From: Anaerolinea thermophila
Lineage (GTDB): Bacteria; Chloroflexota; Anaerolineae; Anaerolineales; Villigracilaceae
Reading direction: 5' to 3'
Assembly: GCA_020722345.1 (NCBI GenBank)
Contig: DYKZ01000001.1
Span: forward strand, 18,108-82,107
DNA length: 64,000 nucleotides
Positions 1 through 42,815 of the stretch are shown piece after piece. The first letter of the stretch is position 1. Each line of letters begins with the position of its first letter. The notes below the pieces were generated by a model that was given only the letters and a program-made list of their open reading frames with translations, made no database searches and was not told the DNA's origin. The position numbers and the translations under genes were made by a program.

Positions 1-324
1 CGAGTTCACTTTACCTGCGAGGCAGAAAAGCTGGACAGCATCGGTCGGGTAATTGACTTCAACGACATCAAGTCACGCCTGTGCATGTGGCTCGAAGACG
101 AGTGGGATCACAAGACGCTCATCTGGGAGAACGATCCTTGGGCAAAGGTTCTGCCCAGCATCGACCCCACGATTGTCATCGTGCCGTTCAACCCGACGGC
201 CGAGAACATCGCGCGATACCTCGTCGAAGTCGTGGGGCCGCAGCAGCTCCAGGGCACCGGCATCAAGCTCGTCCACTGCGATGTCGAAGAGACGCGCAAG
301 TGCTCCGCCTCTTTCCACGCATAA
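1..324 (+). CDS. queD: 6-carboxy-5,6,7,8-tetrahydropterin synthase (QueD), 5'-truncated by window edge
   Basis: Frame 1 is open from nt 1 to TAA 322-324. The translation ...[52 protein letters not shown] matches the C-terminal half of PTPS/QueD (IDFxxLK, DHxxL, NPTxENIA, ET). Confidence 0.8.
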
Positions 325-334
325 GGTGACCCAA

Positions 335-1231
335 ATGAAGAAACTCAGTATCGGTGAACTCAACACGCTGGCCAAGCGCACGGCCCAGCAGATCAACAGC
401 GCCCGCGTAGCGGGGCAGATCGCGGGGCTGGTGGCTTACCCCATACCCCGTGGCGGTGTCAGCGCTGCGCTGGCTGTAGTCGCCTGCCTCGACGGTATGG
501 TGCTGACCGAGAACCCTGCCGAGGCGGACTTTTTCCTGGACGATCTGATCGACAGCGGCAGCACGATGGAACGCTGGTGCGACGAGCATCCGGGCAAGCC
601 GTTCTTCGCACTGATCGACAAGAAGTCCGAACCCGAGTTTCGCGACCGCTGGGTCGTGTTCCCGTGGGAGGAGACTGCCGAGGCTGGTATCGAGGATCAC
701 ATCGTGCGTCTGCTGGAATACGTCGGCGACGACCCATCGCGCGGCGGTCTGCTGGAGACGCCCAAGCGCGTAGCGAAGGCGTGGCGCCACTGGTGCGGCG
801 GCTACGGTAAGGATCCGAAAGAGCTGCTCAAGGTGTTCGAAGACGGTGCCGAGAAGCATGACCAGATGGTGACGGTCAAAGACATCCCCATCTACTCACA
901 CTGCGAGCACCATCTGGCTCCCATCTTCGGCACCGCGACCATCAGCTACATCCCGAACGGAAAGATCGTCGGTCTGAGCAAGCTGTCGCGCCTGGCGGAT
1001 ATGTTTGCGCGGCGCCTGCAAGTGCAGGAACGCCTGACCGACCAGATCGCGGACGCGCTGTTCGAGCACCTCGGAGCGAAGGGCGTCGGTGTGGTTATCA
1101 AGGCCCGCCATATGTGCATGGAGTCCCGGGGCATCTGCCAGCAAGGGCACCACACCATCACGACCGCGCTGCGCGGTGCCATGCGCGATGAGCCCGACAC
1201 CCGTGCCGAGTTTCTTCGGCTTGCCCAGTAA
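335..1231 (+). CDS. folE: Fusion protein: N-terminal Gpt-like type I phosphoribosyltransferase domain plus C-terminal GTP cyclohydrolase I (FolE)
   Basis: ATG at 335 starts MKKLSIGEL. The PRPP loop [12 protein letters not shown] and the ending RWVVFPWEE resemble xanthine-guanine PRTase. The C-terminal half has [40 protein letters not shown] and HMCMESRGI, all typical of FolE. The 392-aa track ORF's first 94 aa are an out-of-frame read through queD. Confidence 0.85.
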
Positions 1232-1247
1232 CCGCTAGTTCTGCTAC

Positions 1248-1278
1248 AATAACGGGACATTATCGATGTCCCGTTATT
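1248..1278 (+). promoter_or_regulatory. Perfect 13-bp inverted repeat (AATAACGGGACAT / ATGTCCCGTTATT, 5-nt loop) between folE and dpdA
   Basis: Read directly from the sequence. It sits just 5' of the GGAGG (1281-1285) and ATG 1290. No U-run follows. Confidence 0.4.
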
Positions 1279-1289
1279 ACGGAGGTCTC

Positions 1290-2210
1290 ATGAATATATT
1301 CATGGCGGCCGTTTATACGAACGGCTACATGCCGGGGCAAACCCGACACGCCAAGCTGACTGAACACGAGCAGAACATCTGTAAGAACCTGCCGCACATT
1401 CTCGAATCGTATCACTACGTCGGGAAACAGAAATACGTCGATGACATGCGTCGCGATGGTGCTAAAGTGTTCCTCGACTCCGGTGCGTTCTCTGCGTACA
1501 CGCTGGGAGTGGACATCAGCGTGGCTGAGTATTGCGACTATATCAATCGCAACCGAGACATCATCCGGGTTGAGGATGGTGTCATGATGGCGTCTGTGCT
1601 GGACGGCATCGGTGACCCGCTACAGACGTGGCGCAATCAACTCGAGATGGAGCAACGCGGGGCGAAGCCGCTGCCATGCTTCCACGCTGGTGAGGATGAG
1701 CGTTATCTGGAATGGTACGTCGCCAACTACGAATATATCACGCTGGGCGGCATGGTGGGCAGCTCCACGAAACAGCTCTGCATCTGGCTGGACCGCATGT
1801 GGGATCGCTACCTGACCGACGGTAGCGGGAACGCACGCATCAAGGTTCACGGGTTCGGCATCACCTCCATTCCTATCATGGAGCGCTATCCGTGGTATTC
1901 CTGTGACTCGTCCTCCTGGATTCAGTCTGCTGCGTTCGGTAGCATTGTTACACCGAAGCACGGGCCCATAAGCGTGTCCGAGAAGTCCCCCAGCAGGCAT
2001 GACGCGGGGCAGCACGTAACCACACTGACGCAGCAGGAGCAGGACTACGTTCTGCAGATGCTCGAGGAACAGGGCTTCACCTATGAGCGCCTGTCGTCTG
2101 TGTACGAATCGCGTGCCGCGTACAACCTCTGGGCATTCGGTGTTATCAACACTATGATCAACGCTGCGAACTCCGAGAAGTTCAAGGCCCGTGTCCAGGA
2201 GCTTTTCTGA
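1290..2210 (+). CDS. dpdA: DpdA-like DNA-guanine transglycosylase (TGT superfamily, 7-deazaguanine insertion into DNA)
   Basis: TGT-like motifs are present: VFLDSGAFS, ITLGGMVG, VHGFGIT, CDSSSW. There is no tRNA-TGT zinc site. The gene lies next to queD/folE. ATG 1290 has a GGAGG 4 nt upstream, whereas the in-frame ATG 1266 lies inside the hairpin. Confidence 0.75.
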   Translation: MNIFMAAVYTNGYMPGQTRHAKLTEHEQNICKNLPHILESYHYVGKQKYVDDMRRDGAKVFLDSGAFSAYTLGVDISVAEYCDYINRNRDIIRVEDGVMMASVLDGIGDPLQTWRNQLEMEQRGAKPLPCFHAGEDERYLEWYVANYEYITLGGMVGSSTKQLCIWLDRMWDRYLTDGSGNARIKVHGFGITSIPIMERYPWYSCDSSSWIQSAAFGSIVTPKHGPISVSEKSPSRHDAGQHVTTLTQQEQDYVLQMLEEQGFTYERLSSVYESRAAYNLWAFGVINTMINAANSEKFKARVQELF

Positions 2211-3163
2211 TGCTTAAAGAACTCAAATTCGTACAGGGCGCGGTGGCGAAGAAAGATTTCGTCCCCGCGATGACGCACTTTGCAATCGAAGACGGAACCG
2301 TGCGCTCGTATAACGGCACGCTGGCGCTGTGCAGCCCCATCCCGTTCGATATCAACTGCAAACCGAAAGCGGGCCCGCTGGTGCAAGCGATCAGCAATTG
2401 TGATGACACCGTCACGCTAAGCATGACGCCTGCGGGAAAGCTCAGAATTCAGAGCGGCAAGTTCAAGGCGTTCGTGGACTGCATCGAGGGTGAGACCGCT
2501 CACGTACTACCCGAGGGGCAGGAAGTCGATTTTGACGGCGAGCAGATTCTCAAGGCGTTCAAGACGCTGTCACCGTTCGTGGGCGATGACGCCTCGCGTC
2601 CGTGGACGAATGGTATTCTGCTCCGTGGGCAGTCGGCCTTCGCGACGAACAACGTGTGCCTCGTGGAGTATTGGGTCGGCGCGCAGATCCCATTCACCGC
2701 CAACATTCCGTTCCAAGCAATCCGCGAAATGCTCCGCATCAACGAAGCGCCCACGCATGCGCAGCTCACCGAAGGGAGCATCACCTTCCACTATACCGAC
2801 GGCCGCTGGATCCGCAGCCAGCTCTATAGCACCAGCTGGCCTGACCTGTCCCGCGTGCTGGACCGTGAGTGCGCACCTGTGGCCATCGACGAGCGTATTT
2901 TCGACGGTCTCGAGGTGATCAAGCCCTTTGCAGATAAGCTGGGCCGGGTGTTCTTCCACGGGGAAGCGGTCAAGACCCACATGGAAGAGGGCATCGGTGC
3001 TTCGTACGATATGCCCGGGTTTCAGGTTGAAGGCATCTATCAGATTGAGATGCTCAAGCTGCTGAAAGGTGTGTGTCACAAGATCGACTTCGCTGCGTAC
3101 CCGAACCCCTGCATCTTCTTCGGGGATCGCCTGCGGGGTGCAATCATAGGCATGCGCCTGTAA
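2210..3163 (+). CDS. DNA polymerase sliding clamp (beta-clamp-like)
   Basis: 317 aa. The N-terminus MLKELKFVQGAVAKKDFVPAMTHFAIEDGTV..GTLAL has the pattern of beta-clamp N-termini. The start overlaps the dpdA stop (TGATG) and the gene directly precedes a polymerase. Confidence 0.55.
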   Translation: MLKELKFVQGAVAKKDFVPAMTHFAIEDGTVRSYNGTLALCSPIPFDINCKPKAGPLVQAISNCDDTVTLSMTPAGKLRIQSGKFKAFVDCIEGETAHVLPEGQEVDFDGEQILKAFKTLSPFVGDDASRPWTNGILLRGQSAFATNNVCLVEYWVGAQIPFTANIPFQAIREMLRINEAPTHAQLTEGSITFHYTDGRWIRSQLYSTSWPDLSRVLDRECAPVAIDERIFDGLEVIKPFADKLGRVFFHGEAVKTHMEEGIGASYDMPGFQVEGIYQIEMLKLLKGVCHKIDFAAYPNPCIFFGDRLRGAIIGMRL

Positions 3164-3217
3164 GCTATACACCACAGCGCCACGGCCCGCTTAATGGCCT
3201 TTATTTGAGGAAAGTCA

Positions 3218-5428
3218 ATGCGTTCAGATGCTCTTGGTCTGTTCTGGGAAGACAGACCGCCACCGCCCAAAGAGAAGGCCGAAAAGGCAAAGCGGACCCC
3301 GCCGGACCCTGTATGGCTCCGCCCTGACTATCTGCCAGGGCTAGAAGAAGCGCTGCGCATGCCCATCGGGGTGATGACGCAGGCGGAGATGGTGCAGGCT
3401 GCAATGGCACGCGACCGCATGCTGTTCGACATCGAGTGTTATGAGAACTACTTCCTGGCATCGTTCCGCTCGCTGACGACCGGCAAGGTCGCATTCTTCG
3501 AGATGTACGAGGAACACCCACTCGACATCAACACGCTGGGATGGGCCTTGCAGAACTTCCTGACCGTTGGGTTCAACTCGCTCTCGTACGACTTGCCAAT
3601 CACCTATCTTGCACTCGCCGGCAAGCCTATGTCATTGCTGAAGCATGCAACGAACCAGATCGTTCTGGAGGGTTGGCGAGGGCAAGACGTGCTGAAACAG
3701 TACAAGGTGAAGGCGCTGAAGGTTGACCACATCGACCTGATCGAAGTCGCTCCGCTACGCGCCAGCCTGAAGATCTACGGCGGTAGGCTGCACGTTCCGC
3801 GTATGCAGGATCTGCCGTTCCACCCTGACACTATTCTGACACCCGAACAGCGTGCGATCGTTCGCTGGTACAACCTCAACAGCGACTTGACGAGCACAGG
3901 GTTCCTCCATGAGTGCCTACGCGAGCACCTGGACCTCCGTACTACTCTCTCGAACGAGATCGGGGTGGACCTGCGTAGCAAGTCAGACGCACAGATCGCT
4001 GAAGCGGTGATTGCGGAGGAATACCTGCGCCGCACGGGTAAGCGCCCGGAGAAGCCCATCATTGAGGTGGGCACGATGTACCGCTACCGCGTGCCCCAAT
4101 TCATCAAGTACCAGTCCGAACTCCTCAATTGGGCGCTCGGTGTGGTAGCGAACGCCAACTTCATCGTTGACGACACGGGATCCATCGGGATGCCGGAAGA
4201 GATCAAGGCGCTAAAGTTGGATATCAACGGGTCGGTGTACCGCATGGGCATCGGCGGTCTACACTCAAGCGAAAGCACCGCAGCGCACGTCAGCGACGAC
4301 CAGTACCTCCTGATCGACAAAGACGTGACATCGTACTACCCGTTCATCATCTTGAACCTCGGTCTGTACCCGCATCACCTGGGCCCGGTGTTTCTGCACA
4401 TCTATAAGAACATCGTTGACCGGCGCATTGCAGCCAAGGCGCGCGGGGACAAGGTGACCGCGGACTCCCTCAAGATCACGATCAACGGGTCGTTCGGCAA
4501 GCTGGGCAGCAAGTATTCGATCCTGTACTCGCCTGACCTGCTGATTCAGGTGACAGTGACGGGTCAGCTGAGCCTGCTGATGTTGATTGAGCGCCTGGAG
4601 ATAGCCGGCATCCATGTGGTCAGCGCCAACACCGACGGCATAGTGATCAAGTGCCCGCGCAACATGCAAGGCGTGATGGATGGCATCGTGGCGCAATGGG
4701 AAAAGGACACGGGCTTCCAGACTGAAGAGTCCCGTTACCTCGCTCTGTACAGTCGCGACGTGAATAACTACATCGCAGTCAAGCAGAAGCAAGATAAGGA
4801 GACTAAGGCCTGGCTGAACGAACCTGACGGAACGAAGTGCAAAGGCGCCTATGCCAACCCGTGGGCCAGCAAGAAGAACATGGCCGAACGGTTGCACAAG
4901 AACCCGACGAATACGATCTGCGTCGAGGCTGTGGAGGCGCTACTAACGAAGGGCGTGCCGATCACCACAACGATTCGCCAGTGCCGTGACATCACGAAGT
5001 TCGTTAGCGTGCGCAGCGTCAAGGGTGGCGCGGTGAAGGTGTGGGAGCGTATTCCTCCGCCCGCGCACACATCACAAGAAGAACTTCTGAGGATGGCTGG
5101 GTTCGTTCCGTTTTCTTCCGGTAGCTGGGTCAGGGGTGAAGACAAGCTGGGGCGCACTGCCATGGCGACCGATCGTGCGTATAAGGTAGCCTGGGACGAA
5201 CTGTCGAAGCCTGGGCTAACAGAGTTCCTGGGCAAGTCGATCCGCTGGTATTACGCGCAGGGCGTAGCGGGTGAGATCGTGTACGCGACGAACGGGAACA
5301 AGGTGCCCCGATCTGAGGGAGCGAAGCCCCTCATGGACCTGCCGAGTGAATTCCCGACCGACGTAGATTTCGAGTGGTACGAAGAGGAAGCTCGAAAGAT
5401 CCTCGAGGTGATAGGGTACGCCACATGA
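3218..5428 (+). CDS. Family B DNA polymerase with 3'-5' exonuclease domain
   Basis: Exo I FDIECYE, Exo II FNSLSYDLP, Exo III WYNLNSDL. Pol motif A DKDVTSYYPFII, motif B KITINGSFGKLG, motif C SANTDGIV. RBS GAGGAAA precedes the ATG. Confidence 0.85.
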   Translation: MRSDALGLFWEDRPPPPKEKAEKAKRTPPDPVWLRPDYLPGLEEALRMPIGVMTQAEMVQAAMARDRMLFDIECYENYFLASFRSLTTGKVAFFEMYEEHPLDINTLGWALQNFLTVGFNSLSYDLPITYLALAGKPMSLLKHATNQIVLEGWRGQDVLKQYKVKALKVDHIDLIEVAPLRASLKIYGGRLHVPRMQDLPFHPDTILTPEQRAIVRWYNLNSDLTSTGFLHECLREHLDLRTTLSNEIGVDLRSKSDAQIAEAVIAEEYLRRTGKRPEKPIIEVGTMYRYRVPQFIKYQSELLNWALGVVANANFIVDDTGSIGMPEEIKALKLDINGSVYRMGIGGLHSSESTAAHVSDDQYLLIDKDVTSYYPFIILNLGLYPHHLGPVFLHIYKNIVDRRIAAKARGDKVTADSLKITINGSFGKLGSKYSILYSPDLLIQVTVTGQLSLLMLIERLEIAGIHVVSANTDGIVIKCPRNMQGVMDGIVAQWEKDTGFQTEESRYLALYSRDVNNYIAVKQKQDKETKAWLNEPDGTKCKGAYANPWASKKNMAERLHKNPTNTICVEAVEALLTKGVPITTTIRQCRDITKFVSVRSVKGGAVKVWERIPPPAHTSQEELLRMAGFVPFSSGSWVRGEDKLGRTAMATDRAYKVAWDELSKPGLTEFLGKSIRWYYAQGVAGEIVYATNGNKVPRSEGAKPLMDLPSEFPTDVDFEWYEEEARKILEVIGYAT

Positions 5429-5507
5429 ACTGTTACACCTTCTGCGGTAGCACAAAGGTTGTGGGCAGTTTTGTGGAAAACGGGCTTGATAGGCTGCGCC
5501 TGACAGG

Positions 5508-5552
5508 ACGGGCTTGTCGATTGAAAGAAATATCGGCAAGCCCGTTTTTATT
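5508..5552 (+). terminator. Rho-independent terminator after the polB gene
   Basis: Stem ACGGGCTTG (5508-5516) pairs with CAAGCCCGT (5537-5545), with an inner TCGAT/ATCG extension, followed by TTTTTATT. An extra direct copy of ACGGGCTTG lies at 5480-5488. Confidence 0.6.
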
Positions 5553-5618
5553 GCTTGCATCTGCTCATGAGGTGTCCTACAGTTACACCATGCCGCAAGT
5601 CGATATTGGAGAGTTGAT

Positions 5619-5897
5619 ATGGAAGAGACCCTCATCGAGGAGATCGTGCTGCGTTACCGCCGTCTGGTTCCGATGACCACGCATGGCGAGCACCTGTTGT
5701 TCATGAAGGTGAAACACGCGCACATGATGCACCCTCTTCAGCTGGACGCACTGCTGATCGCTACCGACGAGGATCTCGTTCATGACGTGGAAGGCATTGC
5801 GCAACACTTCGACACCGCTGCCGGCGTTTACCGCGAGCTGTTTTGGCCGCGCTACGCGGCGGCGTGCGGTGGCCAGTGCAACCATACCGGCCACTAA
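5619..5897 (+). CDS. hypothetical protein
   Basis: 92-aa ORF with GGAG 7 nt upstream of the ATG. No recognisable motif. Confidence 0.45.
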   Translation: MEETLIEEIVLRYRRLVPMTTHGEHLLFMKVKHAHMMHPLQLDALLIATDEDLVHDVEGIAQHFDTAAGVYRELFWPRYAAACGGQCNHTGH

Positions 5898-5958
5898 CCG
5901 ATCGCGGCCTGTACCCCCGAAAGCGGGGCCCGCAGCATAGTTCAATAAGGAGAGCGCA

Positions 5959-6183
5959 ATGCGCAGACGTACCAAAGACAATTTCTATCGAATCTGCGCC
6001 GGTTTGGCCTTTGTTCTTGTGGCCGGTGTCGTCGGGTCCATGGACTACGAAGACGCAGTCCTGGAGGAGCGTGCATACTGCAAGAACGTCCACGAGGGCA
6101 TCTGGCCCGACTATGATGAAATCTATGCGGAGGTGTGCTATGAAGGCCAGCGTCGCGCTGATCTCGCTACTGCTGAGCGCTAA
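5959..6183 (+). CDS. hypothetical membrane protein
   Basis: AAGGAG RBS. One hydrophobic helix, ICAGLAFVLVAGVVG. Confidence 0.45.
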   Translation: MRRRTKDNFYRICAGLAFVLVAGVVGSMDYEDAVLEERAYCKNVHEGIWPDYDEIYAEVCYEGQRRADLATAER

Positions 6184-6535
6184 CGCTGCGCAGGCCTGTG
6201 ACTGGCGCTGCACCGCAGCCTGGTTCAACAGCGACCCAGCTACCCGCATGACAGCGGACGGCCCGAACCTTGCTGCCTACGGGCAAGCCGGCGCAAGCGG
6301 GGCGGAGGCGGTGTCGCGGTGCAAGCTGGACGTCGCGTATGCGGTGACCGAACTCGCCAAGCGGGAGGAGTTTCAGAGGAAGTGTTATGACCTGTATCGC
6401 GCTGACGTGCGCGAGGACATGCGGGCCGTAGATGCGCGGGTCGGTACGTCACCGTCGCGTGTGGACATTCATATCAACATTGAGCGGGAGAACGACAATG
6501 CGCCTCTTTATCAAGATCCCTGCCTGCGCTCGTGA
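6140..6535 (+). CDS. hypothetical secreted protein
   Basis: Internal ATG 6140 has GGAGGTG upstream. The N-terminus MKASVALISLLLSANAAQA looks like a Sec signal peptide. The upstream part of the 230-aa track ORF is Arg/Pro-rich and not protein-like. Confidence 0.5.
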   Translation: MKASVALISLLLSANAAQACDWRCTAAWFNSDPATRMTADGPNLAAYGQAGASGAEAVSRCKLDVAYAVTELAKREEFQRKCYDLYRADVREDMRAVDARVGTSPSRVDIHINIERENDNAPLYQDPCLRS

Positions 6536-6620
6536 TTGGCGGTGCGGTCGCCTGGATCCTAATCGAAATCTTCTCGACGATCAACACCGCCCTCACTACC
6601 GCCATGAAGGTCGCAGGGGG

Positions 6621-6989
6621 CTAGAGCGCCACTCCCGCTGACCAGCCGCCTGCCTTGAACGCGGAGAGCTTCTCCTCGTCCTCGATGTATGCGACCCAGC
6701 CAATGCGCGGTTGCGCGAATACCCAGGAGCCGGCCGGCGTGCCCGGAACCCATACGGCGACGTTTCCGTCGTACCCCAGCCAGGCATCGGTGGCGCCGGT
6801 CGGGACAATGTAGGTGTCGCCTTCTGCTGGTGCGCCTGGAGGTGCGGTGAGGTCGCGGTCCTTCACGGACAGGTGAAAGCCGAAGCGTCCCATGCGCAGC
6901 AGGTTCGCGTCCATGCCGGCGTTCCAGCCGTTCTCACCATACGTCCAGCCCCAGGCAAAGCCCGAGCGCGGTTCAGTCTTCGATGCCAT
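6621..6989 (-). CDS. DUF2793-like tail fibre-associated protein
   Basis: GDTYIVPTGATDAWLGYDGNVAVWVPG..WVFAQPRIGWVAYIEDE matches the DUF2793 pattern as I recall it (GDrYiv..atGaW.G....a.w..g.W.f..P..GW). It is the last gene of the tail module. Confidence 0.6.
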   Translation of the reverse strand: MASKTEPRSGFAWGWTYGENGWNAGMDANLLRMGRFGFHLSVKDRDLTAPPGAPAEGDTYIVPTGATDAWLGYDGNVAVWVPGTPAGSWVFAQPRIGWVAYIEDEEKLSAFKAGGWSAGVAL

Positions 6990-7001
6990 GTTGTTCTCCT
7001 G

Positions 7002-8237
7002 TTACGGGTTGCGCGGAACGAGGCCCGGGATCACCTCGAACTCGATGTTTGGGTCAAGATAAACGATGCGGTCAGGAAGCTGAAACCAGTCATAAGGCGA
7101 CGTGATCTTGCGCCGCGGCTTCAGCGCGCCGGTCGTGGCGTTGTCCAGGAGCTTCTGCTTGACCGCCTGAACCTGCGCCCGGGTCGTCAGCCTCCGGTAG
7201 CCCTGGAGCATACAGGCTACCACGCCGGCGACTATGGGCGTTGCGTAGCTCGTCCCGTTGCCGAGCCGGTAGCCGCCCCCCTCGGACGCCCTCTGAGCCG
7301 ATAGCGTGCGCTGGGCCGGGGCGAGAATGTCCACGTCAGTCAGGCTCCAGTTCGTCCCGTAGCCCGATTCAGGCGTGTAGTACGGGGTGTCATCCGGGGC
7401 GAGCCCGCCGCACACAATGGTGTCCGGGTCCGACTCCGCCGGGCGGATCACGGAGGCCGTGATGTCGGTCGCCTCGTTGCCTGCGGGATAGCAGCAGACG
7501 ATCCCCGCGTTGATCATGTCCGTCACCGCGGCGTCGATGGTACTGGAGAAGTCGGACCAGCTCATGAACATCACCGCCGGGCGGTCATCGTCCGCTTGGG
7601 TGTTGTACTGGGACAAGATCGCGCCCATGGCGGCGACCGCGTTGGTCACGCTTGCTCCCGAGTGGGCGTCGTAGAACTTCATGGAATGGCCGCGGGCTTC
7701 GCGGGCGATGCCGACCGTGCGCCCGAGGGCGAGCCCGAGGCAGTGCGAACCGTGACCGGAGGCGTCCAGCTCCGCTTTCGCGTAGTTCGAACGGTAGTGC
7801 CAATATTGGTTGACCCGGCCCCCGAACTCCGGGTGCGTGTACTCCACCCCGGAGTCGATGATAAAGATGTCCACCCCCGCTCCGGTCCGCTTCGCGTTGA
7901 ACGTCGAAGTGCGCGGGAACGGCAGCGCCCCGCCTCCGGGCGTCCACCACGGGTTCCTCCGGCGGATAACCCGGGCGGCGGACCAGCCGCCGGTTCCCCG
8001 CATGTTCTGCTCCAATACCAATTCCTGGAAGCAGGGCGTCAGTTCCTCGTCACCGTCATCGACGGCCTGGACCGAGGGGTGGGCGCGGAACGGAAATGCC
8101 GCCGCGGCCACTCCAGGCACGCGGAGATGGCGAGGAAGGCCCGGGAAGGGCTCAATGGTCAGGCCCGCGGCCCGGACCTCCTCCGCGAAGGCCGCGGCGA
8201 GGTCGGGCGACTTCAGCACAACGATAGTCTCAGCCAT
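7002..8237 (-). CDS. Subtilisin-family (peptidase S8) serine protease with N-terminal propeptide-like domain
   Basis: Catalytic triad contexts: IIDSGVEYTHPEF (Asp), SGHGSHCLG (His), GNGTSYATPIVAGVVA (Ser). About 110 aa lie N-terminal to the Asp box. Confidence 0.85.
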   Translation of the reverse strand: MAETIVVLKSPDLAAAFAEEVRAAGLTIEPFPGLPRHLRVPGVAAAAFPFRAHPSVQAVDDGDEELTPCFQELVLEQNMRGTGGWSAARVIRRRNPWWTPGGGALPFPRTSTFNAKRTGAGVDIFIIDSGVEYTHPEFGGRVNQYWHYRSNYAKAELDASGHGSHCLGLALGRTVGIAREARGHSMKFYDAHSGASVTNAVAAMGAILSQYNTQADDDRPAVMFMSWSDFSSTIDAAVTDMINAGIVCCYPAGNEATDITASVIRPAESDPDTIVCGGLAPDDTPYYTPESGYGTNWSLTDVDILAPAQRTLSAQRASEGGGYRLGNGTSYATPIVAGVVACMLQGYRRLTTRAQVQAVKQKLLDNATTGALKPRRKITSPYDWFQLPDRIVYLDPNIEFEVIPGLVPRNP

Positions 8238-8239
8238 GA

Positions 8240-8860
8240 TCAGACCACCACCGCGGAACCTTCGATGACCTCAAGGCACATCCACGTGTAGTTCGCCAGA
8301 ACGTCGTTCAGGTCTGAAGTCATATCGTAGCCGTTAATGCGCAGCTCGAAGTAGTCCCCCTCAACCACCGGGATTACAGCAGTTTGGGCGTGATAGATGT
8401 TATCTGTGTAACCCGAAGTGTAGTGCTTGTTGTTTTCGCTCCCCGCCCCCGGCCATCCGCCGGTGCCGTTCTTGTAAAAGGACGTGTACACGGAGTGGGA
8501 CGTGTTGACGGCGGTCAGCCCGACCTGCCCGCTCAGGCGGACCTTGTGGACCCCCGCCGGTATAGTGATCATGGTGGGCTGGCCCGCGTTCCAGAAGCCG
8601 TCCGTGTCGTAGGCTACCGCGTCCCATGGGATCAGGAACGGCTGGTTGACAATGGGCGCATCAACGAGGTCCACGGAGCGGTAGGCGAGCACGCCCCGGA
8701 ACGGGGTTGCCCAAGTCTGGGCGGAGGTGACCCCCGCCAGCGCAGCGGCGATCTGGGCCAAGGTCGCCTTCCGGCTGTTCCCCGCCTGTACCAAGTGAAG
8801 TAGCTCGTCCCCGGTGATCGCGTCCGCGGCGATCAGGTCCTCAATCGTCTTGTTTGCCAT
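8240..8860 (-). CDS. tail fibre protein
   Basis: The N-terminus MANKTIEDLIAADAITGDELLHLVQAGNSRKATLAQIA is typical of fibre N-termini. The C-terminus is beta-rich. Position in the tail-fibre block supports the call. Confidence 0.6.
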   Translation of the reverse strand: MANKTIEDLIAADAITGDELLHLVQAGNSRKATLAQIAAALAGVTSAQTWATPFRGVLAYRSVDLVDAPIVNQPFLIPWDAVAYDTDGFWNAGQPTMITIPAGVHKVRLSGQVGLTAVNTSHSVYTSFYKNGTGGWPGAGSENNKHYTSGYTDNIYHAQTAVIPVVEGDYFELRINGYDMTSDLNDVLANYTWMCLEVIEGSAVVV

Positions 8861-8872
8861 GATTCATTCCTC

Positions 8873-9229
8873 TCAAAGTTCAAGCAGGTCGCCGCCGGTC
8901 TGGGCGTCCCCGGACAGCATAAGGTTGTTGTCCAAGCCCTCGTCCAGCTCGTCCAAACTCAGCATCAGCTTCGCCCGGGGCGCGGGCGTCGCATCCGTGG
9001 TCACCTCTATCTCCGGCCCGACCTGCTGAAGCCCGGCGAGGAAGGCCGCCACGCGGTAGTAATAGGTGGTGTTGGGCAGCGCCGTCTCGTCCACGTACTC
9101 CGTGACGCCCGGCCCGACCTCCGCGAGCGGGGCCGGGAGGTTCTGAGGGTCCATCGGGCTCGTGGAGCGGTAGATGCGGTGCCCGTCCTCAACCGTGTTG
9201 TTGTCGTCCCACGTCAATAATACGCTCAT
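8873..9229 (-). CDS. FN3-like domain tail/fibre accessory protein
   Basis: LTWDDNNTVEDGHRIYRS...TEYVDETALPNTTYYYRVAAF has the fibronectin type III signature. It is paralogous to the N-terminus of the next gene. Confidence 0.55.
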   Translation of the reverse strand: MSVLLTWDDNNTVEDGHRIYRSTSPMDPQNLPAPLAEVGPGVTEYVDETALPNTTYYYRVAAFLAGLQQVGPEIEVTTDATPAPRAKLMLSLDELDEGLDNNLMLSGDAQTGGDLLEL

Positions 9230-9240
9230 TCAACCCTCCG

Positions 9241-10161
9241 TCAAACGTGTATCGCCAGTATAACGTCGCTCCGCCGGTCCTCCGGTTCCTCTAAGGACAC
9301 GTTCCAGCCCGCCGTCTCGAAATTGCACGCCTCGTTGGCGGCGGCTTCTACAAACCAAGCAAAATACCGCATTTGTCGCGCGTTCGGCTCCTCGATAGGC
9401 CAGCGGGTCGGGCGACACATCGGGATCATCCGTGACGGGAAGCCCTCCACGTAGGACTCGCCAGAGGTCGTTTGGTAAATCCAGGACGTACAGACCATCA
9501 CGAGCGCGGGCTTGTTCGTGTTCGTGAAGGTGAAGGCCGCGGCCCTCAGAGGGCCTTTGATCCTGGACGCGCCCAGAGGAGTCACCTGGAGGGGCTTCGA
9601 GTCATGGCGGATAACCGCGATGGAGGCCATCAGGCGCACGTTGCTCGCCTGCTGGAGCGTCACTTGCGCCCCTGACTCCGAGCCGTCCGCGATCTTCCAC
9701 AGGGCGAACGTCCATTGTTGGAAGCCGTTGTCCGCGTCCGCCGGTTCCGGCCCCAGGGTCCATCCCGGAGGCGTGGATACCCAAGCGTCCCGGCGAGCCC
9801 CGAAGATAACGAGCAGGTCCCCTGCCTTACAATCCGGGACCGTCAGCGTGAGGGTCGCACCGTCGCCGTTGTACCCCAGCTGAATTTGCTGCGTCGCGTA
9901 CAGGAAGCGCGGCAGCTCCTCCTCCGGGGTCACGGCCCGCGCTACGCCTTCGCCCACCTCCTCGTTGACGAACGGGGCGACGTAGTAGTGCTGTTGGACG
10001 CCCGCGGGGGCGGTCTGGTCCTCGAACACCCCCCGGCCCGCCGGCACGGAGGCCAGGGGCGCGGGCAGGGCCTGCGGGTCAATCGGGGCCGGGTCCCGGA
10101 AGATTTGAACACCGTCCTCCGCCAGCTCCCGGTCTTTCCAAGTGAGACGTACTTTCGCCAT
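9241..10161 (-). CDS. tail fibre/baseplate protein with N-terminal FN3-like module
   Basis: RLTWKDRELAEDGVQIFRD..PQALPAPLASV..HYYVAPF parallels the 8873-9229 product. The C-terminal 200 aa are unassigned. Confidence 0.55.
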   Translation of the reverse strand: MAKVRLTWKDRELAEDGVQIFRDPAPIDPQALPAPLASVPAGRGVFEDQTAPAGVQQHYYVAPFVNEEVGEGVARAVTPEEELPRFLYATQQIQLGYNGDGATLTLTVPDCKAGDLLVIFGARRDAWVSTPPGWTLGPEPADADNGFQQWTFALWKIADGSESGAQVTLQQASNVRLMASIAVIRHDSKPLQVTPLGASRIKGPLRAAAFTFTNTNKPALVMVCTSWIYQTTSGESYVEGFPSRMIPMCRPTRWPIEEPNARQMRYFAWFVEAAANEACNFETAGWNVSLEEPEDRRSDVILAIHV

Positions 10162-10162
10162 A

Positions 10163-13045
10163 TCAAACTCCTCCGCCGACCGCGTAGGCTTCCACGTCTA
10201 CCGGCGCGAACAGGTTGCCCGTCTTAGCCGCCATGTTAGAAGGCGGCGCCAAGAGCGGCAGCTTCAGCTCCGCTGGCCTCCAGGACTTGAGCCCATCCCG
10301 AACCGCCCGGACCTGGAGCACGAGAATGGCGGAACCGTCCGGGATAGTGTGTTCAAGCAGGTCAATCGTGTAGGTTTTCAACGCCCCGATGTCCTGCTGG
10401 AAGAACTGAACCTGGTTGCCGTCCTCCGTCTCGCCCAACATCGTGATCTCATAGGTGGTTCCAGCCTCCGGGACCACCTCCCCGTCCGTCCAGGCGAGCG
10501 GAACACCGCCCGTCTCCTGGAGCCGGTTGCGGCCCACCCACGTCGCCACCGCCGGGTAAGCCACGTTGTCGTTGGGGTCCACGTCCAGCTCGCCGTTGAT
10601 GCGGAGGTTCGCCGGGCGGTAGGGCCGGGCCGCGCGTCCCTCTATCGTCAGGGACATTTCCGGGGCCGCGGCGATGTCCAGCTGGCCGGAGCCCGTGACG
10701 GTCGCCAGCTTGACACGGACCTGCTCGCTGTTGACATACTCCGTGGGGGAGCCCGCCGGGAAGGCGTCCCAGAAGTAGATGACGGACCCCGCGCCGTGCT
10801 CCTTGGGCACCGTGTCATAGATCGCGCGGCGGACCGTCACGGTGTTGAGCACCGGGTCCAGCGCCTCGATCCACACCAGCTCCTCCCCGATCTGGGCCCA
10901 TGACGGGACCTCGACCAGATCAAGGTCCACGCCGCCTTGTATGGAGAACTCAGTGTTGAATCGCCCAACGGGTGCGGACAGCTTCGCGTAGGGGCAGAAG
11001 TCCAGCACCCCGGCTTCCTCGAAGGTTTCGCCCAGGCCCGCCGCCGTGTAGAGACGGGCGTTGAGGCTCGCCACGTTCGGACGGCCCGCCGCCGCCCCCA
11101 CGTAGCCCAGATCAGGCTCCGCGGCCAGGGTCTGGTCAGTCTGCGCCTGCCCCTGCTGTTGAACCAGCTCGATGTACGGGATTTCGTACACGATCTGATC
11201 AGCCACCGGGGTCGGGCCGCTGTTCGGGTCCTCCCATTGCGGCGGGTCGGGCGTGACCAGCGCCGTCTCCGGGAGGTCGAACACGTCCTCAGTACAGGTG
11301 ATTTTGATGCGGTTCGTCCGTCCGTCGCCATAGGCGATGCCGTTGACGCGCATCACCACCTCGCTGAGGTTGTAGTCCGCCCAGGACAGCTTGAACACGT
11401 CGCCAATCGTCAGGTCCTTCGCCGTCCGGTCCGCGTAGATGGTACACGAGGCCCGCTGCGAGGAGAGGGCCTTGAGGTCACGTTGCGCGACCCGGGAGGC
11501 AATGGCGGGGTCCACAAATCCCGGGTACTGGATGGTGGTCCCGATAGTGACGCCCTGCATCTGCTGAAGCGCGATGTCCTGGGCGGACACGCTCGCGTCC
11601 CTCCCGGTATTCACGTTCCAGTAGTTGACCGTGACCGCGTTCGTCAGCTCCCCGAAGGCCGGGCGCGTGAAGTTCTCGATCTTGTCAATATTGTCTTCGT
11701 TCAGGTGAAGCAGGTTGTCCTTGTTGTATCCTCCGCGGATCAGCTTCAGAGTGAACAGGCCGGTCTTGCGGTCCACGTACAGGGCCGCGTCGATATGCTT
11801 CACAATCTCCCCGATGAAGTCCTCAATCGGGGTCTGGCGGTCCCAGAGGATGCTGATGCCCATCCGCTCGTTGTAGAGCTGGTCCGCCGCGGCCATGAAG
11901 GACTGGTCATCCACCTCCGCGTCCGAGTAGCCCATGCCCCAATCGGGGTCGGTCAGGCACTCCCGGATGATGTGGGCCGGGTTCATGGCGGAGCTGTCGC
12001 CCATCACCGCGAAGAACACCGCGTTGTACAGGGCGTTGGACTCCGCGGAGTCAACCACCGGGATACCGTCCTGCGGCGTGTTCTCGACCAACGCGATGTA
12101 GGAGGTGTTTGAGAGGTCGATGCTGATGCCGTACACGTCCACGGGGCTCTGCGCCCAGACGCCCTCCTTGCGGATCATCGGACCCGCGACGGCCAGCGCC
12201 TGATCGACCGTGGTGGCGGGTTCCGGGAGGCCGTCCGTGATGAAGAACATCGCCCGGCGGCGACCGTCCGCGGAGCCGGGCTGAAACCAGTTGACCGCGT
12301 TGCCGTAGGGCTGGCTGAAGTCGGTCCCTCCCGAGGCGGACAAGCCGTCCACAAAGTTCTTGAGGTCCTGTATGTCCGCGGAGGAGACGTTGAAGCGGCT
12401 CATCTGGGTCGTGGACGTGCTCCAGCCGCAGACAGCGATGTCCACCTGGACCTTGGAGTCAATCCGCAGTTGGTCGATAGCGTCCAGCACCGCCTTCATC
12501 TGGGTCTTGGCGAGCTGGAGACGGGTCAAGCCGCCCGACACCACCGTGTCCATCGACCCGGACGTGTCCAGGGCGAAGAAGAACATTTGGCGCTGCTTGA
12601 AGTTCGAGGCGACCTTGATTTCAGCCTTCGGGTAGTACCACTGAGCCGCGCCGCTCTGGCGCATATGAATGCGCTGGACCCTGAATGCCCACTTCTTCAG
12701 GTACGGGTTCAGCCCGAGGTACACCTGACGGAGGACCACGCCGACAACGCCCCGGTAGGCCGGAATCAGGGACCCGAGCTTGCTGAGCAGGTAGCTGTTC
12801 TGCCCCTGGGCCGGTCCGCCGGGCTCGAAGTCCACCGTGCCCTGGATACCGCCCTCCCGGCTTTCGCCGCCGAACAGGTCCGGGTTGTCCACGTAGATGG
12901 AGCCGCTGTTGCGGTCGCCCAACCAGGCGTCCTTCCCGTCCACTCGAATGCGCAGGATGCGATCCACCGGACCGTGGCACAGGATCATGTGCATGCCCAA
13001 GTAGTATTTGTATCCAACGGTGACTTTCTTACTGCTTCCGCCCAC
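10163..13045 (-). CDS. tail tip / host-specificity protein (GTA g15-like body) with inserted vWA domain
   Basis: GTG start with GGAGG upstream. The N-terminus GGSSKKVTVGYKYYLGMHMILCHGPV matches the conserved GGGKG..YsY..alCeGpi region of GTA-type host-specificity proteins. vWA MIDAS DTSGSMD...GGTDF...FFITDGLPEP lies near aa 160-340. Confidence 0.75.
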   Translation of the reverse strand: MGGSSKKVTVGYKYYLGMHMILCHGPVDRILRIRVDGKDAWLGDRNSGSIYVDNPDLFGGESREGGIQGTVDFEPGGPAQGQNSYLLSKLGSLIPAYRGVVGVVLRQVYLGLNPYLKKWAFRVQRIHMRQSGAAQWYYPKAEIKVASNFKQRQMFFFALDTSGSMDTVVSGGLTRLQLAKTQMKAVLDAIDQLRIDSKVQVDIAVCGWSTSTTQMSRFNVSSADIQDLKNFVDGLSASGGTDFSQPYGNAVNWFQPGSADGRRRAMFFITDGLPEPATTVDQALAVAGPMIRKEGVWAQSPVDVYGISIDLSNTSYIALVENTPQDGIPVVDSAESNALYNAVFFAVMGDSSAMNPAHIIRECLTDPDWGMGYSDAEVDDQSFMAAADQLYNERMGISILWDRQTPIEDFIGEIVKHIDAALYVDRKTGLFTLKLIRGGYNKDNLLHLNEDNIDKIENFTRPAFGELTNAVTVNYWNVNTGRDASVSAQDIALQQMQGVTIGTTIQYPGFVDPAIASRVAQRDLKALSSQRASCTIYADRTAKDLTIGDVFKLSWADYNLSEVVMRVNGIAYGDGRTNRIKITCTEDVFDLPETALVTPDPPQWEDPNSGPTPVADQIVYEIPYIELVQQQGQAQTDQTLAAEPDLGYVGAAAGRPNVASLNARLYTAAGLGETFEEAGVLDFCPYAKLSAPVGRFNTEFSIQGGVDLDLVEVPSWAQIGEELVWIEALDPVLNTVTVRRAIYDTVPKEHGAGSVIYFWDAFPAGSPTEYVNSEQVRVKLATVTGSGQLDIAAAPEMSLTIEGRAARPYRPANLRINGELDVDPNDNVAYPAVATWVGRNRLQETGGVPLAWTDGEVVPEAGTTYEITMLGETEDGNQVQFFQQDIGALKTYTIDLLEHTIPDGSAILVLQVRAVRDGLKSWRPAELKLPLLAPPSNMAAKTGNLFAPVDVEAYAVGGGV

Positions 13046-13235
13046 GGGCCGCCTCCACTACTTGGAGGGCCATCGGATCGCCGGTGGCCACGAGTTTGTC
13101 CGCGGCGATCCCGTTCGCCAGGAACTCCGACCAGTTGAGCCCGTGTCGCTCGAAGAAGGCCCGCGCCCCGCGGGAGCACATCTTGACGGCTCGCACGTCA
13201 TCCATTCGGATGATCAGTTGGCTATCGTCCGTCAT
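13029..13235 (-). CDS. hypothetical protein lying between the two host-specificity gene pieces
   Basis: 68 aa. ATGA overlap with the upstream gene and 17-nt overlap with the downstream GTG. The sequence MTDDSQLIIRMDDVRAVKMCSRGARAFFERHGLNW is not assignable. Confidence 0.5.
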   Translation of the reverse strand: MTDDSQLIIRMDDVRAVKMCSRGARAFFERHGLNWSEFLANGIAADKLVATGDPMALQVVEAARGRKQ

Positions 13236-13465
13236 TTCTTGCCGCCCTTCTTCTTGATCGCCACGGTGCGCAAGTCACCGAACCACACCACGTTCGGCCC
13301 TTCAATGTCCCGGGTCCCGAACAGCACCGGGATTTCCCGGCCCTCCTCCGCGGTCGGCACCTTGAAGTCGCCCAGGCCCGCGGGCTTCGCGTTCTGCGGC
13401 TTGGGCGTCAGCGAGTAGCTGACCACCAGCGCGACCACGAAGACCGCGATGTACCACCAAACCAT
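13232..13465 (-). CDS. N-terminal fragment-like piece of host-specificity protein (TM helix plus IPxxFGTxxxxGxxxW box)
   Basis: ATG 13465 has GGAGG upstream. The product MVWWYIAVFVVALVVSYSL...EIPVLFGTRDIEGPNVVWFGDLRTV..KKKGGKK resembles the extreme N-terminus of GTA g15-type proteins. Confidence 0.5.
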   Translation of the reverse strand: MVWWYIAVFVVALVVSYSLTPKPQNAKPAGLGDFKVPTAEEGREIPVLFGTRDIEGPNVVWFGDLRTVAIKKKGGKK

Positions 13466-13478
13466 GGTCTGGCCTCCT

Positions 13479-14924
13479 CTACACGATGGATGAACCGTCG
13501 AACGGATTGCGAATGGGTATCCAGTCAAATCCGCCGTAGTTCATCAAGTTATTGAAACGCCCGTGGCAGGTCCCCCGGGTCCGGTCGCACCCCGGGAACA
13601 TGCGCACTGCCGCGCCGCCGTAATACTGGCCATAGGATAGCCCGTAGCCGTCAAGCGCCAAAGCCTTCGCCATCGACTCGAACGGACGGAGGAGGGTCAG
13701 CTGGTTCCCCACGTGGTTCGTGATGAAGCGCAGCGTCCCGTCCGGGCCTTCGAGGATGCCCGTGGTGAAGTAGCCGTTGGGGTAGGCCGCGGCCTCCGGG
13801 ACCGTGACCACGAGGCCGTTGATGGCGGTCGGGACGCCCTTGACGGCCCAGGCTTCCTTACTCACCCCGCAACCGCGGGAGTACAGCATGTGGCGGCAGC
13901 TCCGCTGATAGCGGGCGCGGAGCCCGGGGCGGCGCAGCGACGTGAACACGGACTCAAAGTTGAGGATGATTTCGCTCATGGTGGGCTTGACGCCCGACAA
14001 CCGGCCCTTCCAGACGATGCTGATTTCATCGTCCTCGTCCCGCTCGAAGATCGTCAGTGTGACCAGCGTCTCTACGTGGTCGTGGAGCCAGCGTTGTCCC
14101 ATGGAGTTGCCCAGGTCCACCTTGACTTCGATGTTCGCCCGGCTCAGTTCGTTCTTCGTCTCCGCCTCGCTGCGACCGATAGGCACGGGCGTGTACGTCT
14201 CGCCCATGTAGTCCACCGGCTCGTCCCCGCTCGTGAAGGTCCAGACCTCCGACTCAGTAGGCCCCGCGCTCAGGATGGCGTTGTACAAGGCGTCCGAGTT
14301 CGTGGAGGAGAGGACCGGCACGCCGTCCCGGGGCGTGTTGTCGAGCAGCCCAAGATAGGTCGTGTCATAATGGTCCACGGACATACAATAGATGTCCACC
14401 TCATTCCCGGAGGCGGGCGAGAAGGCCCCGGTGCGGGTGATCATGTCCGCCGCGAGGCTCGCCGCGTTCGCGGCAGAGCTGGCGGGCTCCGGCACCCCGT
14501 CCGTGATGAAGAACAGGGACTGGCGGAAGTCCGCCGGGGTCGGGGTCAGGAAGTAGTTGCGCGCCGCGGCCACGGGCGCGTCATAGGGCGTCCCGCCCTC
14601 AGCGACCAGCCCATCAATCCACGCCTTCAGGTCCGCGATGGAGGAGCTGGAGACGTTCCGGCGGACAATCGTCACGGTCCCGGTCCCGGAGAAGGCCGCC
14701 ATGCCGATATGGACAGCCACGTTCTTCTCAATCCGCTTCCGGTCGATTTCGTCCAGGACCCGCTTCAGCTGATCCTTGGCGACCTGGAACCGGGTCATCC
14801 CGGGCGACCCCTGTTCATTCATGGACCCGGACTTGTCCACGATGAAGTAGAAGTTTTGGTTGCCGTCGAAGGGGTCCTTGAGCCCCTGCTCGACAAATCT
14901 GTACATCTCAACTTTTGTACTCAT
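13479..14924 (-). CDS. tail hub protein (DUF2163 / BR0599-like, GTA g13-like) with N-terminal vWA domain
   Basis: The C-terminus FPGCDRTRGTCHGRFNNLMNYGGFDWIP is the BR0599 signature. The N-terminus carries vWA MIDAS DKSGSMN...GGTPYD...FFITDGVPEP. Confidence 0.7.
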   Translation of the reverse strand: MSTKVEMYRFVEQGLKDPFDGNQNFYFIVDKSGSMNEQGSPGMTRFQVAKDQLKRVLDEIDRKRIEKNVAVHIGMAAFSGTGTVTIVRRNVSSSSIADLKAWIDGLVAEGGTPYDAPVAAARNYFLTPTPADFRQSLFFITDGVPEPASSAANAASLAADMITRTGAFSPASGNEVDIYCMSVDHYDTTYLGLLDNTPRDGVPVLSSTNSDALYNAILSAGPTESEVWTFTSGDEPVDYMGETYTPVPIGRSEAETKNELSRANIEVKVDLGNSMGQRWLHDHVETLVTLTIFERDEDDEISIVWKGRLSGVKPTMSEIILNFESVFTSLRRPGLRARYQRSCRHMLYSRGCGVSKEAWAVKGVPTAINGLVVTVPEAAAYPNGYFTTGILEGPDGTLRFITNHVGNQLTLLRPFESMAKALALDGYGLSYGQYYGGAAVRMFPGCDRTRGTCHGRFNNLMNYGGFDWIPIRNPFDGSSIV

Positions 14925-40305: not shown

Positions 40306-40307
40306 AT

Positions 40308-40577
40308 TCAGTTGGTTCTCCGAGGTTCACAAACAATAGTCTTGCCCAGGGGCCGCGACGGATCGTGGCGGCACTCCAGGCGCTCAAACCGGGACGGGTC
40401 CGGCTTTCCTGCCTCCGCCGGTACGGTGACGCGAACCGGCGGGGCGAGACGGGGCGAGAAGCTGCCGACCTGCGCCCGCCGGATCGTCTCCTGGGCGTTA
40501 TACAGGGGGCGATCCTCCGCTTGCGCCTGCGTGGCGAGCGGCAGCAGGACGGCCAGGGCGAGGGTCATCAGTCTCAT
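40308..40577 (-). CDS. small secreted protein
   Basis: ATG 40577 has AGGAG upstream. The signal peptide is MRLMTLALAVLLPLATQAQA. It is the first gene after promoter cassette 2. Confidence 0.5.
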   Translation of the reverse strand: MRLMTLALAVLLPLATQAQAEDRPLYNAQETIRRAQVGSFSPRLAPPVRVTVPAEAGKPDPSRFERLECRHDPSRPLGKTIVCEPRRTN

Positions 40578-40611
40578 GATCGGGCTCCTTCGGTTCGGGG
40601 TCAGTGAAGAA

Positions 40612-40640
40612 AGTATAGTCACGGACCCCGAAGAAGTAAA
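40612..40640 (-). promoter_or_regulatory. Promoter cassette 2 (TTTACT-N17-TATACT)
   Basis: -10 at 40612-40617 and -35 at 40635-40640. It has the same flanks as cassette 1. Confidence 0.6.
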
Positions 40641-40644
40641 GTGG

Positions 40645-42531: not shown

Positions 42532-42541
42532 CGACCCGAGG

Positions 42542-42763: not shown

Positions 42764-42781
42764 TTGCGCCTCGTGTGAAGA

Positions 42782-42810: not shown

Positions 42811-42815
42811 GTGGA

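Follow-up and report, generated by a model that had tools for sequence, protein, structure and literature searches.

The 64,000-nt stretch of DNA analyzed here (the window) lies on a contig of 111,818 bp, DYKZ01000001.1, from an assembly filed under Anaerolinea thermophila, and it carries phage genes. It opens with a block on the plus strand (nt 1–6624) that includes 7-deazaguanine genes, a sliding clamp, and a family-B DNA polymerase (PolB), and it continues with tail, head, and replication genes on the minus strand, among them a family-A polymerase (PolA). The first-pass annotation took the block for a horizontally acquired "modification and replication" cassette. Here, we consider what the block is and how it came to stand beside the rest of the window. 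Related contigs are cited by number with the prefix L (e.g., L013, a JGI contig).

In an open reading frame (ORF) list for the whole window, all convincing ORFs within nt 1–6624 are on the plus strand, and from 6621 to 64000 everything with a coding signal in the G+C content of third codon positions (GC3) is on the minus strand. The description of the block as the sole plus-strand coding region is therefore upheld. Its G+C content is lower, as had been noted, at 58.4% (1–6620) compared with 64.9% (6621–64000); the earlier estimate of mid-50s was slightly low for the block. Composition was also profiled along the window in 1-kb steps. Seven block genes have a mean GC3 of 0.744, compared with 0.875 in 24 genes from elsewhere in the window (Mann–Whitney p = 1.5e-6). 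The codons AAA, GAA, TAT, and ATT occur 9.7, 25.5, 15.8, and 10.7 times per 1000 in the block and 3.3, 17.1, 6.7, and 7.2 times in the rest of the window. Codons ending in A or T are thus enriched 1.5- to 3-fold, although to call them common in the block, as was done at first, goes too far. The T-run terminator proposed to end the block (5508–5552) is real, with a folding energy of −28.9 kcal/mol and a z-score of −5.6 (0 of 200 shuffles folded as well). A simple consensus terminator scan overlooked this hairpin because its loop is 10 nt long, and folding confirmed it. It does not end the block, however, as three small genes and a possible fourth ORF lie beyond it. The block does converge on the tail genes at 6621 as described, with the stop of its last ORF and that of the minus-strand DUF2793 tail gene sharing the CTAG at 6621–6624.

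Table 1. Features of the window, with the match or observation behind each call.
Feature	Coordinates	Strand	Basis
queD, 3' part (6-carboxytetrahydropterin synthase), cut by window start	1–324	+	frame ends with TAA at 322–324
FolE (GTP cyclohydrolase I)	335–1231	+	Pfam GTP_cyclohydroI 1.5e-69; NCBIfam FolE 2.1e-70, above cut-off
DpdA-like DNA guanine transglycosylase (phage "tgt")	1266–2210	+	phrog_887 "queuine tRNA-ribosyltransferase" 5.9e-100
Sliding clamp, bacterial beta-clamp (DnaN) fold	2210–3163	+	phrog_947 3.6e-81
Family-B DNA polymerase with 3'-5' exonuclease motifs	3218–5428	+	phrog_1252 4e-211
Intrinsic terminator 3' of polB	~5505–5552	+	17-bp stem, then U5 (UUUUU)
DUF6874 protein, 92 aa	5619–5897	+	Pfam 1.4e-12; phrog_12453 1.4e-36; 86% aa identity to PaMx25 gp32
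Predicted membrane protein, 74 aa	5959–6183	+	called in L010, L013, L026; hydrophobic stretch; 59% aa identity to PaMx25 gp31
131-aa protein, lipoprotein-like signal peptide (AQAC lipobox-like)	6140–6535	+	phrog_18970 1.7e-31; 49% aa identity to PaMx25 gp30
Possible 30-aa transmembrane ORF	6532–6624	+	short ORF at arm end
DUF2793 distal tail-fiber gene	6621–6989	−	Pfam DUF2793 1.2e-22; GC3 0.78, lowest among minus-strand genes
Lineage-affinity switch	6979–6989		start codon and ribosome-binding site (RBS) region of DUF2793 gene; sliding identity and nucleotide alignment
Distal tail genes: S8-peptidase tail protein, 206, 118, 306, 960, ~77–98, 481, 389 aa	7002–16090	−	GC3 0.81–0.89
S8 tail protein, 411 aa, subtilase (Peptidase_S8) domain	7002–8237	−	Pfam Peptidase_S8 6.9e-27
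Yuavirus (M6-like) genome: tape measure, head, terminase, replication genes	16092–64000	−	93–98% nt identity to M6, LKO4, PSP2, others
Primase-helicase	43042–45465	−	confirmed by Pfam scan
PolA	47287–49269	−	Pfam DNA_pol_A 2e-48
Thymidine-hypermodification cassette, M6-type, complete	50474–56957	−	Pfam matches to five enzymes
dUMP hydroxymethylase	50474–51529	−	Pfam (Thymidylat_synt)
5-hydroxymethyldeoxyuridine (5-hmdU) DNA kinase	52920–53483	−	Pfam (HMUDK_HMUD1)
Radical S-adenosylmethionine enzyme	53511–54944	−	Pfam (Radical_SAM)
Pyridoxal phosphate enzyme	55016–55852	−	Pfam (PALP)
Amino acid:DNA transferase	56076–56957	−	Pfam (ADDT)
Dda-like helicase	60555–61748	−	Pfam scan

Genes of the plus-strand block

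The bundling of deazaguanine genes with a beta-clamp-like protein and a complete PolB, as first described, is borne out by profile and structure matches. The preQ0 pathway is co-located with the DpdA-like gene. Of its enzymes, FolE and QueD are encoded in the window, and L013 supplies QueE and Gat-QueC, which are exact members of the source contig. Full-length QueD has 139 aa on L013 (NCBIfam QueD 1.1e-21). FolE, called as 298 aa in L010, L013, and L015, carries some 110 additional residues at its N-terminus, forming a domain whose phosphoribosyltransferase-like match is faint (phrog_8995, 2.4e-4). The annotation of the phage PaMx25 splits the FolE-homologous region into two overlapping genes, gp38 and folE, yet this region aligns to the window ORF as one high-scoring segment pair in one frame. 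The start of the DpdA-like gene is at 1290 in the JGI and Logan gene calls, and its product is 88.6% identical in amino acids to PaMx25 tgt. Against the NCBIfam DpdA model, it falls far below threshold (E 0.0067, 15 bits, cut-off 200), and it has no Pfam TGT match and no PDB match. The phage deazaguanine systems of 9g, CAjan, and iggy have the same enzyme set, with DpdA alongside FolE, QueD, QueE, and QueC. In comparison with those systems, the DpdA of the window matches its PHROG family only, and the modification chemistry is predicted.

For the clamp, the profile matches 4trt (DNA polymerase III beta) at 6.4e-5, and there is no Pfam match. Its AlphaFold2 (AF2) model has a mean predicted local distance difference test (pLDDT) score of 87.3, and Foldseek aligned it with DnaN at E ~1e-17 and a template modeling (TM) score of 0.73–0.75 over 340–380 columns.

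In PolB, all of the motifs claimed at first (Exo I–III and A–C) are present, and the family-B fold is matched. Across 28 aligned homologues, the key residues of Exo I (D71/E73), Exo II (N120/D125), and Exo III (Y218/D223) and those of motifs A and B do not vary; motif A reads D367/D369-V-x-S-x-Y374-P, and motif B reads K419-I-x-x-N423-G-x-x-G427. In motif C, N471-T472-D473 replaces the canonical DTD, and S-A-N-T-D-G (residues 469–475) is invariant in the clade. The last aspartate of the DTD motif has a catalytic role, and the aspartate aligned with it is retained. The alignment profile matches E. coli Pol II in the PDB at 1.9e-5, over motifs B–C only. With the AF2 model (pLDDT 84.6), Foldseek alignments of some 800 columns were obtained to archaeal PolB, Pol alpha, and E. 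coli Pol II at E 2.5e-14 to 1e-10. In contrast, there is no Pfam match at E < 0.01, and the NCBIfam matches to Pol II and PolB are far below cut-off. The Nipunavirus polymerases form a divergent clade that escapes Pfam DNA_pol_B entirely despite a clear predicted family-B fold. No close PolB relative was found in IMG/VR (identity ≤ 63%), and the representative genomes of GTDB gave a single irrelevant match (42%).

Downstream of the polB terminator, at the arm end, three small ORFs (5959–6624) resemble membrane proteins or lipoproteins. The 131-aa protein among them has a faint spanin2 match (0.0044).

Two phage lineages in one window

The relatives of the block are phages of the Nipunavirus type, which belong to the Queuovirinae. 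Window 1–6336 matches 21 records, of which 19 are Nipunavirus-type phages (PaMx25, NP1, JG012, Quinobequin-P09, and others) at 80–81% nucleotide identity; the remaining two are copies of one Sphingomonas phage that match part of polB only. For the arm only, identity to Nipunavirus phages is about 80% over 82–88% of 6.7 kb, and FolE, DpdA, the clamp, PolB, and the DUF6874 protein are 82–89% identical in amino acids to their PaMx25 counterparts. None of more than 60 Yuavirus records carries the block. In PaMx25, the order is queE, gat-queC, queD, folE, tgt, clamp, polymerase, and three small genes, followed by convergent tail genes on the other strand; its annotation names no polymerase besides this PolB. 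Gene order and transcription toward a convergent tail module are the same in the arms of PaMx25, NP1, JG012, and Quinobequin-P09, as is a G+C content of about 58–60%. The stretches measured in PaMx25 and Nipunavirus-like contigs had 58–60% G+C and a GC3 of 0.67–0.82, tail genes included, and Yuavirus-like genes had a GC3 of 0.85–0.92. Because PaMx25-like genomes show all three, the composition, orientation, and gene bundling of the block are ordinary for one known phage type. More generally, the deazaguanine cluster adjoins polymerase genes in Queuovirinae (PMC10484667).

There are differences from the cultured phages as well. PaMx25 has a small ORF, gp36 (a homing endonuclease in NP1), between folE and dpdA that is lacking in the window, and the window has a strong terminator 3' of polB. 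Its last two small genes are only 49–59% identical to those of PaMx25, and the tail genes beyond DUF2793 are not PaMx25-like. Judged by sequence identity, about 80% to cultured phages, the block appears to be a further example of an already known type of phage arm for replication and modification.

Uncultured relatives are much closer, and a search with PolB turned up near-identical proteins. The Logan contig SRR23004073_2817 (L010), 59,248 bp from an uncultured phage, is 96.7% identical to window 1–5488 and is Nipunavirus-like on both sides: a DEAD-box helicase precedes the matching stretch, and low-GC3 tail genes of its own follow. Together with L010, the JGI and Logan contigs L013, L014, L015, and L026 have 96–99.97% nucleotide identity over the whole block, including the DUF2793 gene, and their gene calls are identical. 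L013 is 99.97% identical to window 1–7155 and reaches 3.8 kb further to the left, where it encodes QueD, Gat-QueC, QueE, and two small proteins and keeps 97% identity to L010 right up to its end. Four of its proteins from left of the window are exact members of the 111,818-bp contig, which also has homologues (≥ 90%) of the Nipunavirus-like 592-aa DEAD-box helicase and of a 183-aa protein. We take these proteins to lie on one and the same contig as the window. If they do, the Nipunavirus-like arm reaches 6.4 kb or more beyond the left edge of the window, which brings the block to at least 13.5 kb, with a second helicase; it is therefore no 6.6-kb cassette.

The cassette reading is accordingly probably wrong, and the block is better described as the native end of a PaMx25-like replication arm, at least 6.4 kb longer leftward. 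The synteny check proposed at first gave the same result, as the same block, in the same order and orientation, is the native layout of Nipunavirus relatives (PaMx25 and L010). Of the claim that the block is foreign to the rest, the separate evolutionary origin stands (about 80% identity to Nipunavirus, and presence in no sequenced Yuavirus), but the compact cassette does not. Nor is there anything to point to a specialized repair polymerase, since PolB is the only annotated polymerase in PaMx25. A mobile island of bacterial or plasmid origin inserted into a phage would account for the lower G+C and the opposite strand, but we give it next to no credence. Each gene has its best match among Nipunavirus-type phages, in which the gene order is kept, and the block goes on leftward as part of a phage replication arm. 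Nothing like an integrase, a transposase, or a flanking repeat stood out in the ORF lists and family scans (no repeat search was made). With the Nipunavirus matches, the synteny with PaMx25, and the context of L010, a bacterial or plasmid origin is effectively refuted.

The rest of the window is of another lineage. From 17.9 to 64 kb, it is 93–98% identical to Pseudomonas Yuavirus phages (M6, LKO4, PSP2, Lydia, and others), and the PolA, primase-helicase, and helicases first described there were all found again. As in the Yuavirus phages of the Mesyanzhinovviridae (M6, YuA, LKO4, PSP2, Lydia), the genes are on one strand and include PolA, the primase-helicase, a ribonucleotide reductase (RNR), and 5-hmdU-based thymidine-hypermodification genes, with a pathway as described previously (PMC5889632, PMC8989533). 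The stretches of M6 and BILI that we examined are annotated on one strand. In cultured Yuavirus genomes, the tail protein is followed by gp39 and gp40 and then directly by the gp41 helicase, without deazaguanine genes, clamp, or PolB. The JGI contig L017 is 100% identical to window 53553–64000. Within 40000–60000, one phage-database record has ≥ 99% identity to the window, outside the top matches listed.

The join at the distal tail genes

The two lineages meet where the DUF2793 gene has its start codon and RBS. Leftward of 6979, the sequence is that of L010, L013, and L026, with the whole DUF2793 gene included. To the right of 6990, it equals L027 and L028, and from 7400 also L019 (91–100% at 7400–7760), and identity to L010 drops to 45–71%. 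The DUF2793 gene itself is 96–100% identical in nucleotides to Nipunavirus-like L010; against Yuavirus-like L019, it reaches 50–93% in 60-nt steps and 76% in the 300-nt chunk at 6601. By composition and phylogeny, it belongs with the plus-strand block and not with the backbone. Contigs from five assemblies stop within about 350 nt of the switch, at 6810, 6918, 6945, 7008, and 7155. The end of L026 at 7008 equals 6978 + 30, as expected of a k = 31 unitig where two sequences merge at 6979 (k = 31 is assumed for Logan). The start-codon and RBS region of the DUF2793 gene is thus a recombination and assembly breakpoint common to several datasets. The exact junction 38-mer was not found in IMG/VR. 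Two Nipunavirus-like contigs from two datasets, L013 and L026, carry window-type sequence just to the right of the switch, and therefore Nipunavirus-like phages with a Yuavirus-composition tail gene really exist. L010 runs into its own low-GC3 tail genes instead (an S8 protein of 400 aa, a protein of 316 aa, and others), and the window runs into tail genes of Yuavirus composition.

The distal tail genes beyond the switch (7002–16090) have a Yuavirus-like composition and an architecture that is not of the M6 type, in which they differ from cultured Yuavirus phages. Their products are only 24–69% identical in amino acids to those of M6 or PaMx25, and four genes at 7002–10161 (S8 and those for 206, 118, and 306 aa) have no match in either phage. 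Versions of the S8 tail protein with 400 and 421 aa were seen on related contigs. Overall, L019 is 79% identical in nucleotides to window 6622–13171, rising to 93–98% at 12–13.2 kb, and L018 is 93–97% identical at 14.4–17.1 kb. The tail region to the right of the switch is thus an older mosaic, L019-like at 12–13.2 kb, L018-like at 14.4–17.1 kb, and M6-like from about 17.9 kb. A crossover from Nipunavirus to Yuavirus in the tape-measure gene was considered and rejected; this is a second, older mosaic boundary, which the diverged L018 spans at 85%. Between Mesyanzhinovviridae and Queuovirinae, homology of the tail modules is known from both gene order and sequence (PMC11946847).

An "empty site" is found on Yuavirus-like L019 and L020, where the gp41 helicase, an intergenic region, a gp40-like gene, the DUF2793 tail gene, and the S8 tail gene are on one strand, without the block. 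Both become homologous to the window again at precisely nt 6622, the right boundary of the site. The left boundary lies beyond the window, where the arm keeps its Nipunavirus-like character for 6.4 kb or more. A metagenome scan with the helicase start found empty-site contigs and, from the same sample, nothing upstream of the helicase. In L019, the intergenic region upstream of the gp41 helicase (6349–6790) has runs such as TTCTTCTTCTTCTTCTT and AACTTACTTAACTTACTTACC. L017, which is from the cave sample discussed below, ends 4 nt before the helicase ATG, at the edge of that intergenic region.

Could a single phage genome hold both parts? The source contig carries the exact PolB, tape-measure, tail, PolA, primase, RNR, and gp41-helicase proteins of the window. 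Its Yuavirus-like part is a complete genome of about 59.7 kb (window 6979–64000, 1,496 nt of helicase from L017, and about 1.2 kb by analogy with L019). Cultured Yuavirus genomes have 59.4–62.4 kb, and their capsid genes are about 93% identical to those of the window. The Yuavirus-like genome and the confirmed arm together account for 72 kb or more. The non-Yuavirus share of the contig, about 52 kb, is near the size of a whole 59-kb Nipunavirus-like genome. From packaging limits, neither ≥ 72 kb nor 111.8 kb can be a single M6-type virion chromosome. With sizes beyond one virion genome, the most likely reason that PolA and PolB occur together is that two phages were joined during assembly. The lengths of the two genomes minus that of the contig (59,248 + 59,716 − 111,818) leave about 7.1 kb, and the distal-tail module in L010 has 7,118 bp. 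This fits a walk through a shared distal-tail module and is suggestive, although not proof. We therefore regard it as probable that the block is the end of a Nipunavirus-like replication arm joined by the assembler to an M6-like genome via a shared tail module, and it is probably not an island inside one phage.

If the assembler joined two genomes in this way, two co-occurring phages would share a near-identical distal-tail module, itself the product of real exchange between the lineages, and the assembler would have walked from one genome into the other through it. The arm of the first phage, a Nipunavirus-like siphophage, runs from the DEAD-box helicase through small genes, QueE, Gat-QueC, QueD, FolE, DpdA, the beta-clamp, PolB, and the terminator to the small membrane proteins, transcribed toward tail genes on the opposite strand. 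FolE, QueD, QueE, and Gat-QueC would make the 7-deazaguanine base, and DpdA would swap it for guanine in DNA after replication. The product may be dG+, as the Gat-QueC fusion on the adjoining contig is of the type reported to give this base (PMC10484667). PolB and the DnaN-like clamp would be the replicase of this phage, given that PolB is the only polymerase annotated in PaMx25. The Yuavirus-like genome would be separate, with its own PolA replisome and thymidine-hypermodification genes.

Several points weigh against an assembly join. A second set of head and terminase genes on the contig is predicted from its size alone, 47.8 kb of it lying outside the window. In searches with the PaMx25 portal, aimed at such a second set of head genes, and with the clamp, the listings show cluster representatives only and thereby hide the other members. 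L010-type tail proteins had no member at ≥ 90% on the 111,818-bp contig. L013, an independent JGI assembly, supports the join for 166 nt past the switch, and no contig among the look-ups that were possible had a Yuavirus-type junction, in which gp40 is followed by the same DUF2793 gene. Finally, the assembly join is proposed from sequence comparison.

The L013 junction and the lack of a Yuavirus-type junction speak at the same time for a real recombinant, in which a Yuavirus-like phage replaced the gp39/gp40 region and its last tail gene by a Nipunavirus-like arm. Such a phage would hold two replicases (PolA, and PolB with its clamp) and two modification systems, and the 111.8-kb contig would then represent this genome as a partial concatemer or as an assembly extended too far. 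The sequence runs through the join without Ns, and every junction ORF is intact. Module exchange at tail genes is common, and the tail region of the window is a mosaic of L019-, L018-, and M6-like segments. However, a genome of at least about 72 kb (59.7 kb and the arm of at least 13.5 kb with its second helicase) is some 120% of the 59.4–62.4 kb packaged by related capsids. The block is in none of the Yuavirus records, nor in L019 or L020, and past the first 166 nt of the S8 gene, only the 111.8-kb contig links it to Yuavirus genes. Contig ends also cluster at the junction in several datasets. We therefore consider a recombinant phage unlikely.

A related possibility is a non-packaged co-integrate or recombination intermediate of two co-infecting phages, with a crossover in the shared tail module, recovered from intracellular biofilm DNA. 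The sample was total biofilm DNA and not virions (PMC4288042). The length arithmetic given above also fits; a true co-integrate would be one module copy longer, or of equal length if the assembler collapsed the module. However, such molecules would be rare beside parental genomes, and an assembler cannot distinguish them from a walk through the graph, so that we rate this as very unlikely.

Sample and significance

The origin of the sample was traced through the contigs. L013 comes from JGI sample 3300000227, with the scaffold name TB_AS07_7, and Logan L014, from SRR1559028, is 99.98% identical to the window. SRR1559028 is one of eight runs in PMC4288042, where the sample is not specified. We infer that sample 3300000227 and SRR1559028 are the Acquasanta Terme cave biofilm AS07-7 and that the window is from it or from a closely related dataset. 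Phage DNA 95–98% identical to Pseudomonas aeruginosa Yuavirus isolates was seen in what appears to be the metagenome of a sulfidic cave-spring biofilm at 44 °C (AS07-7). Either Pseudomonas-type hosts live there, or the library was cross-contaminated.

The finding is mainly cautionary. What looked like an island with a second polymerase is the normal genome end of a known phage type beside another genome, and metagenome-derived viral contigs should be compared in size with their relatives before islands are called. It seems improbable to us that the contig represents a real hybrid siphophage, a Yuavirus chassis with a Nipunavirus arm and two complete replicases that modifies both thymidine (5-hmdU-derived) and guanine (7-deazaguanine, probably dG+). 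If it were one genome, T and G would both be modified on the same DNA, and a hybrid phage with two replicases would offer a valuable system in which to study how modified templates are handled by polymerases. The biological content lies in the divergent Nipunavirus PolB clade, with no Pfam match and an invariant NTD in motif C. In addition, Nipunavirus-like and Yuavirus-like phages exchange distal tail modules, and they do so at a precise gene boundary, which in the window is at 6979–6989.

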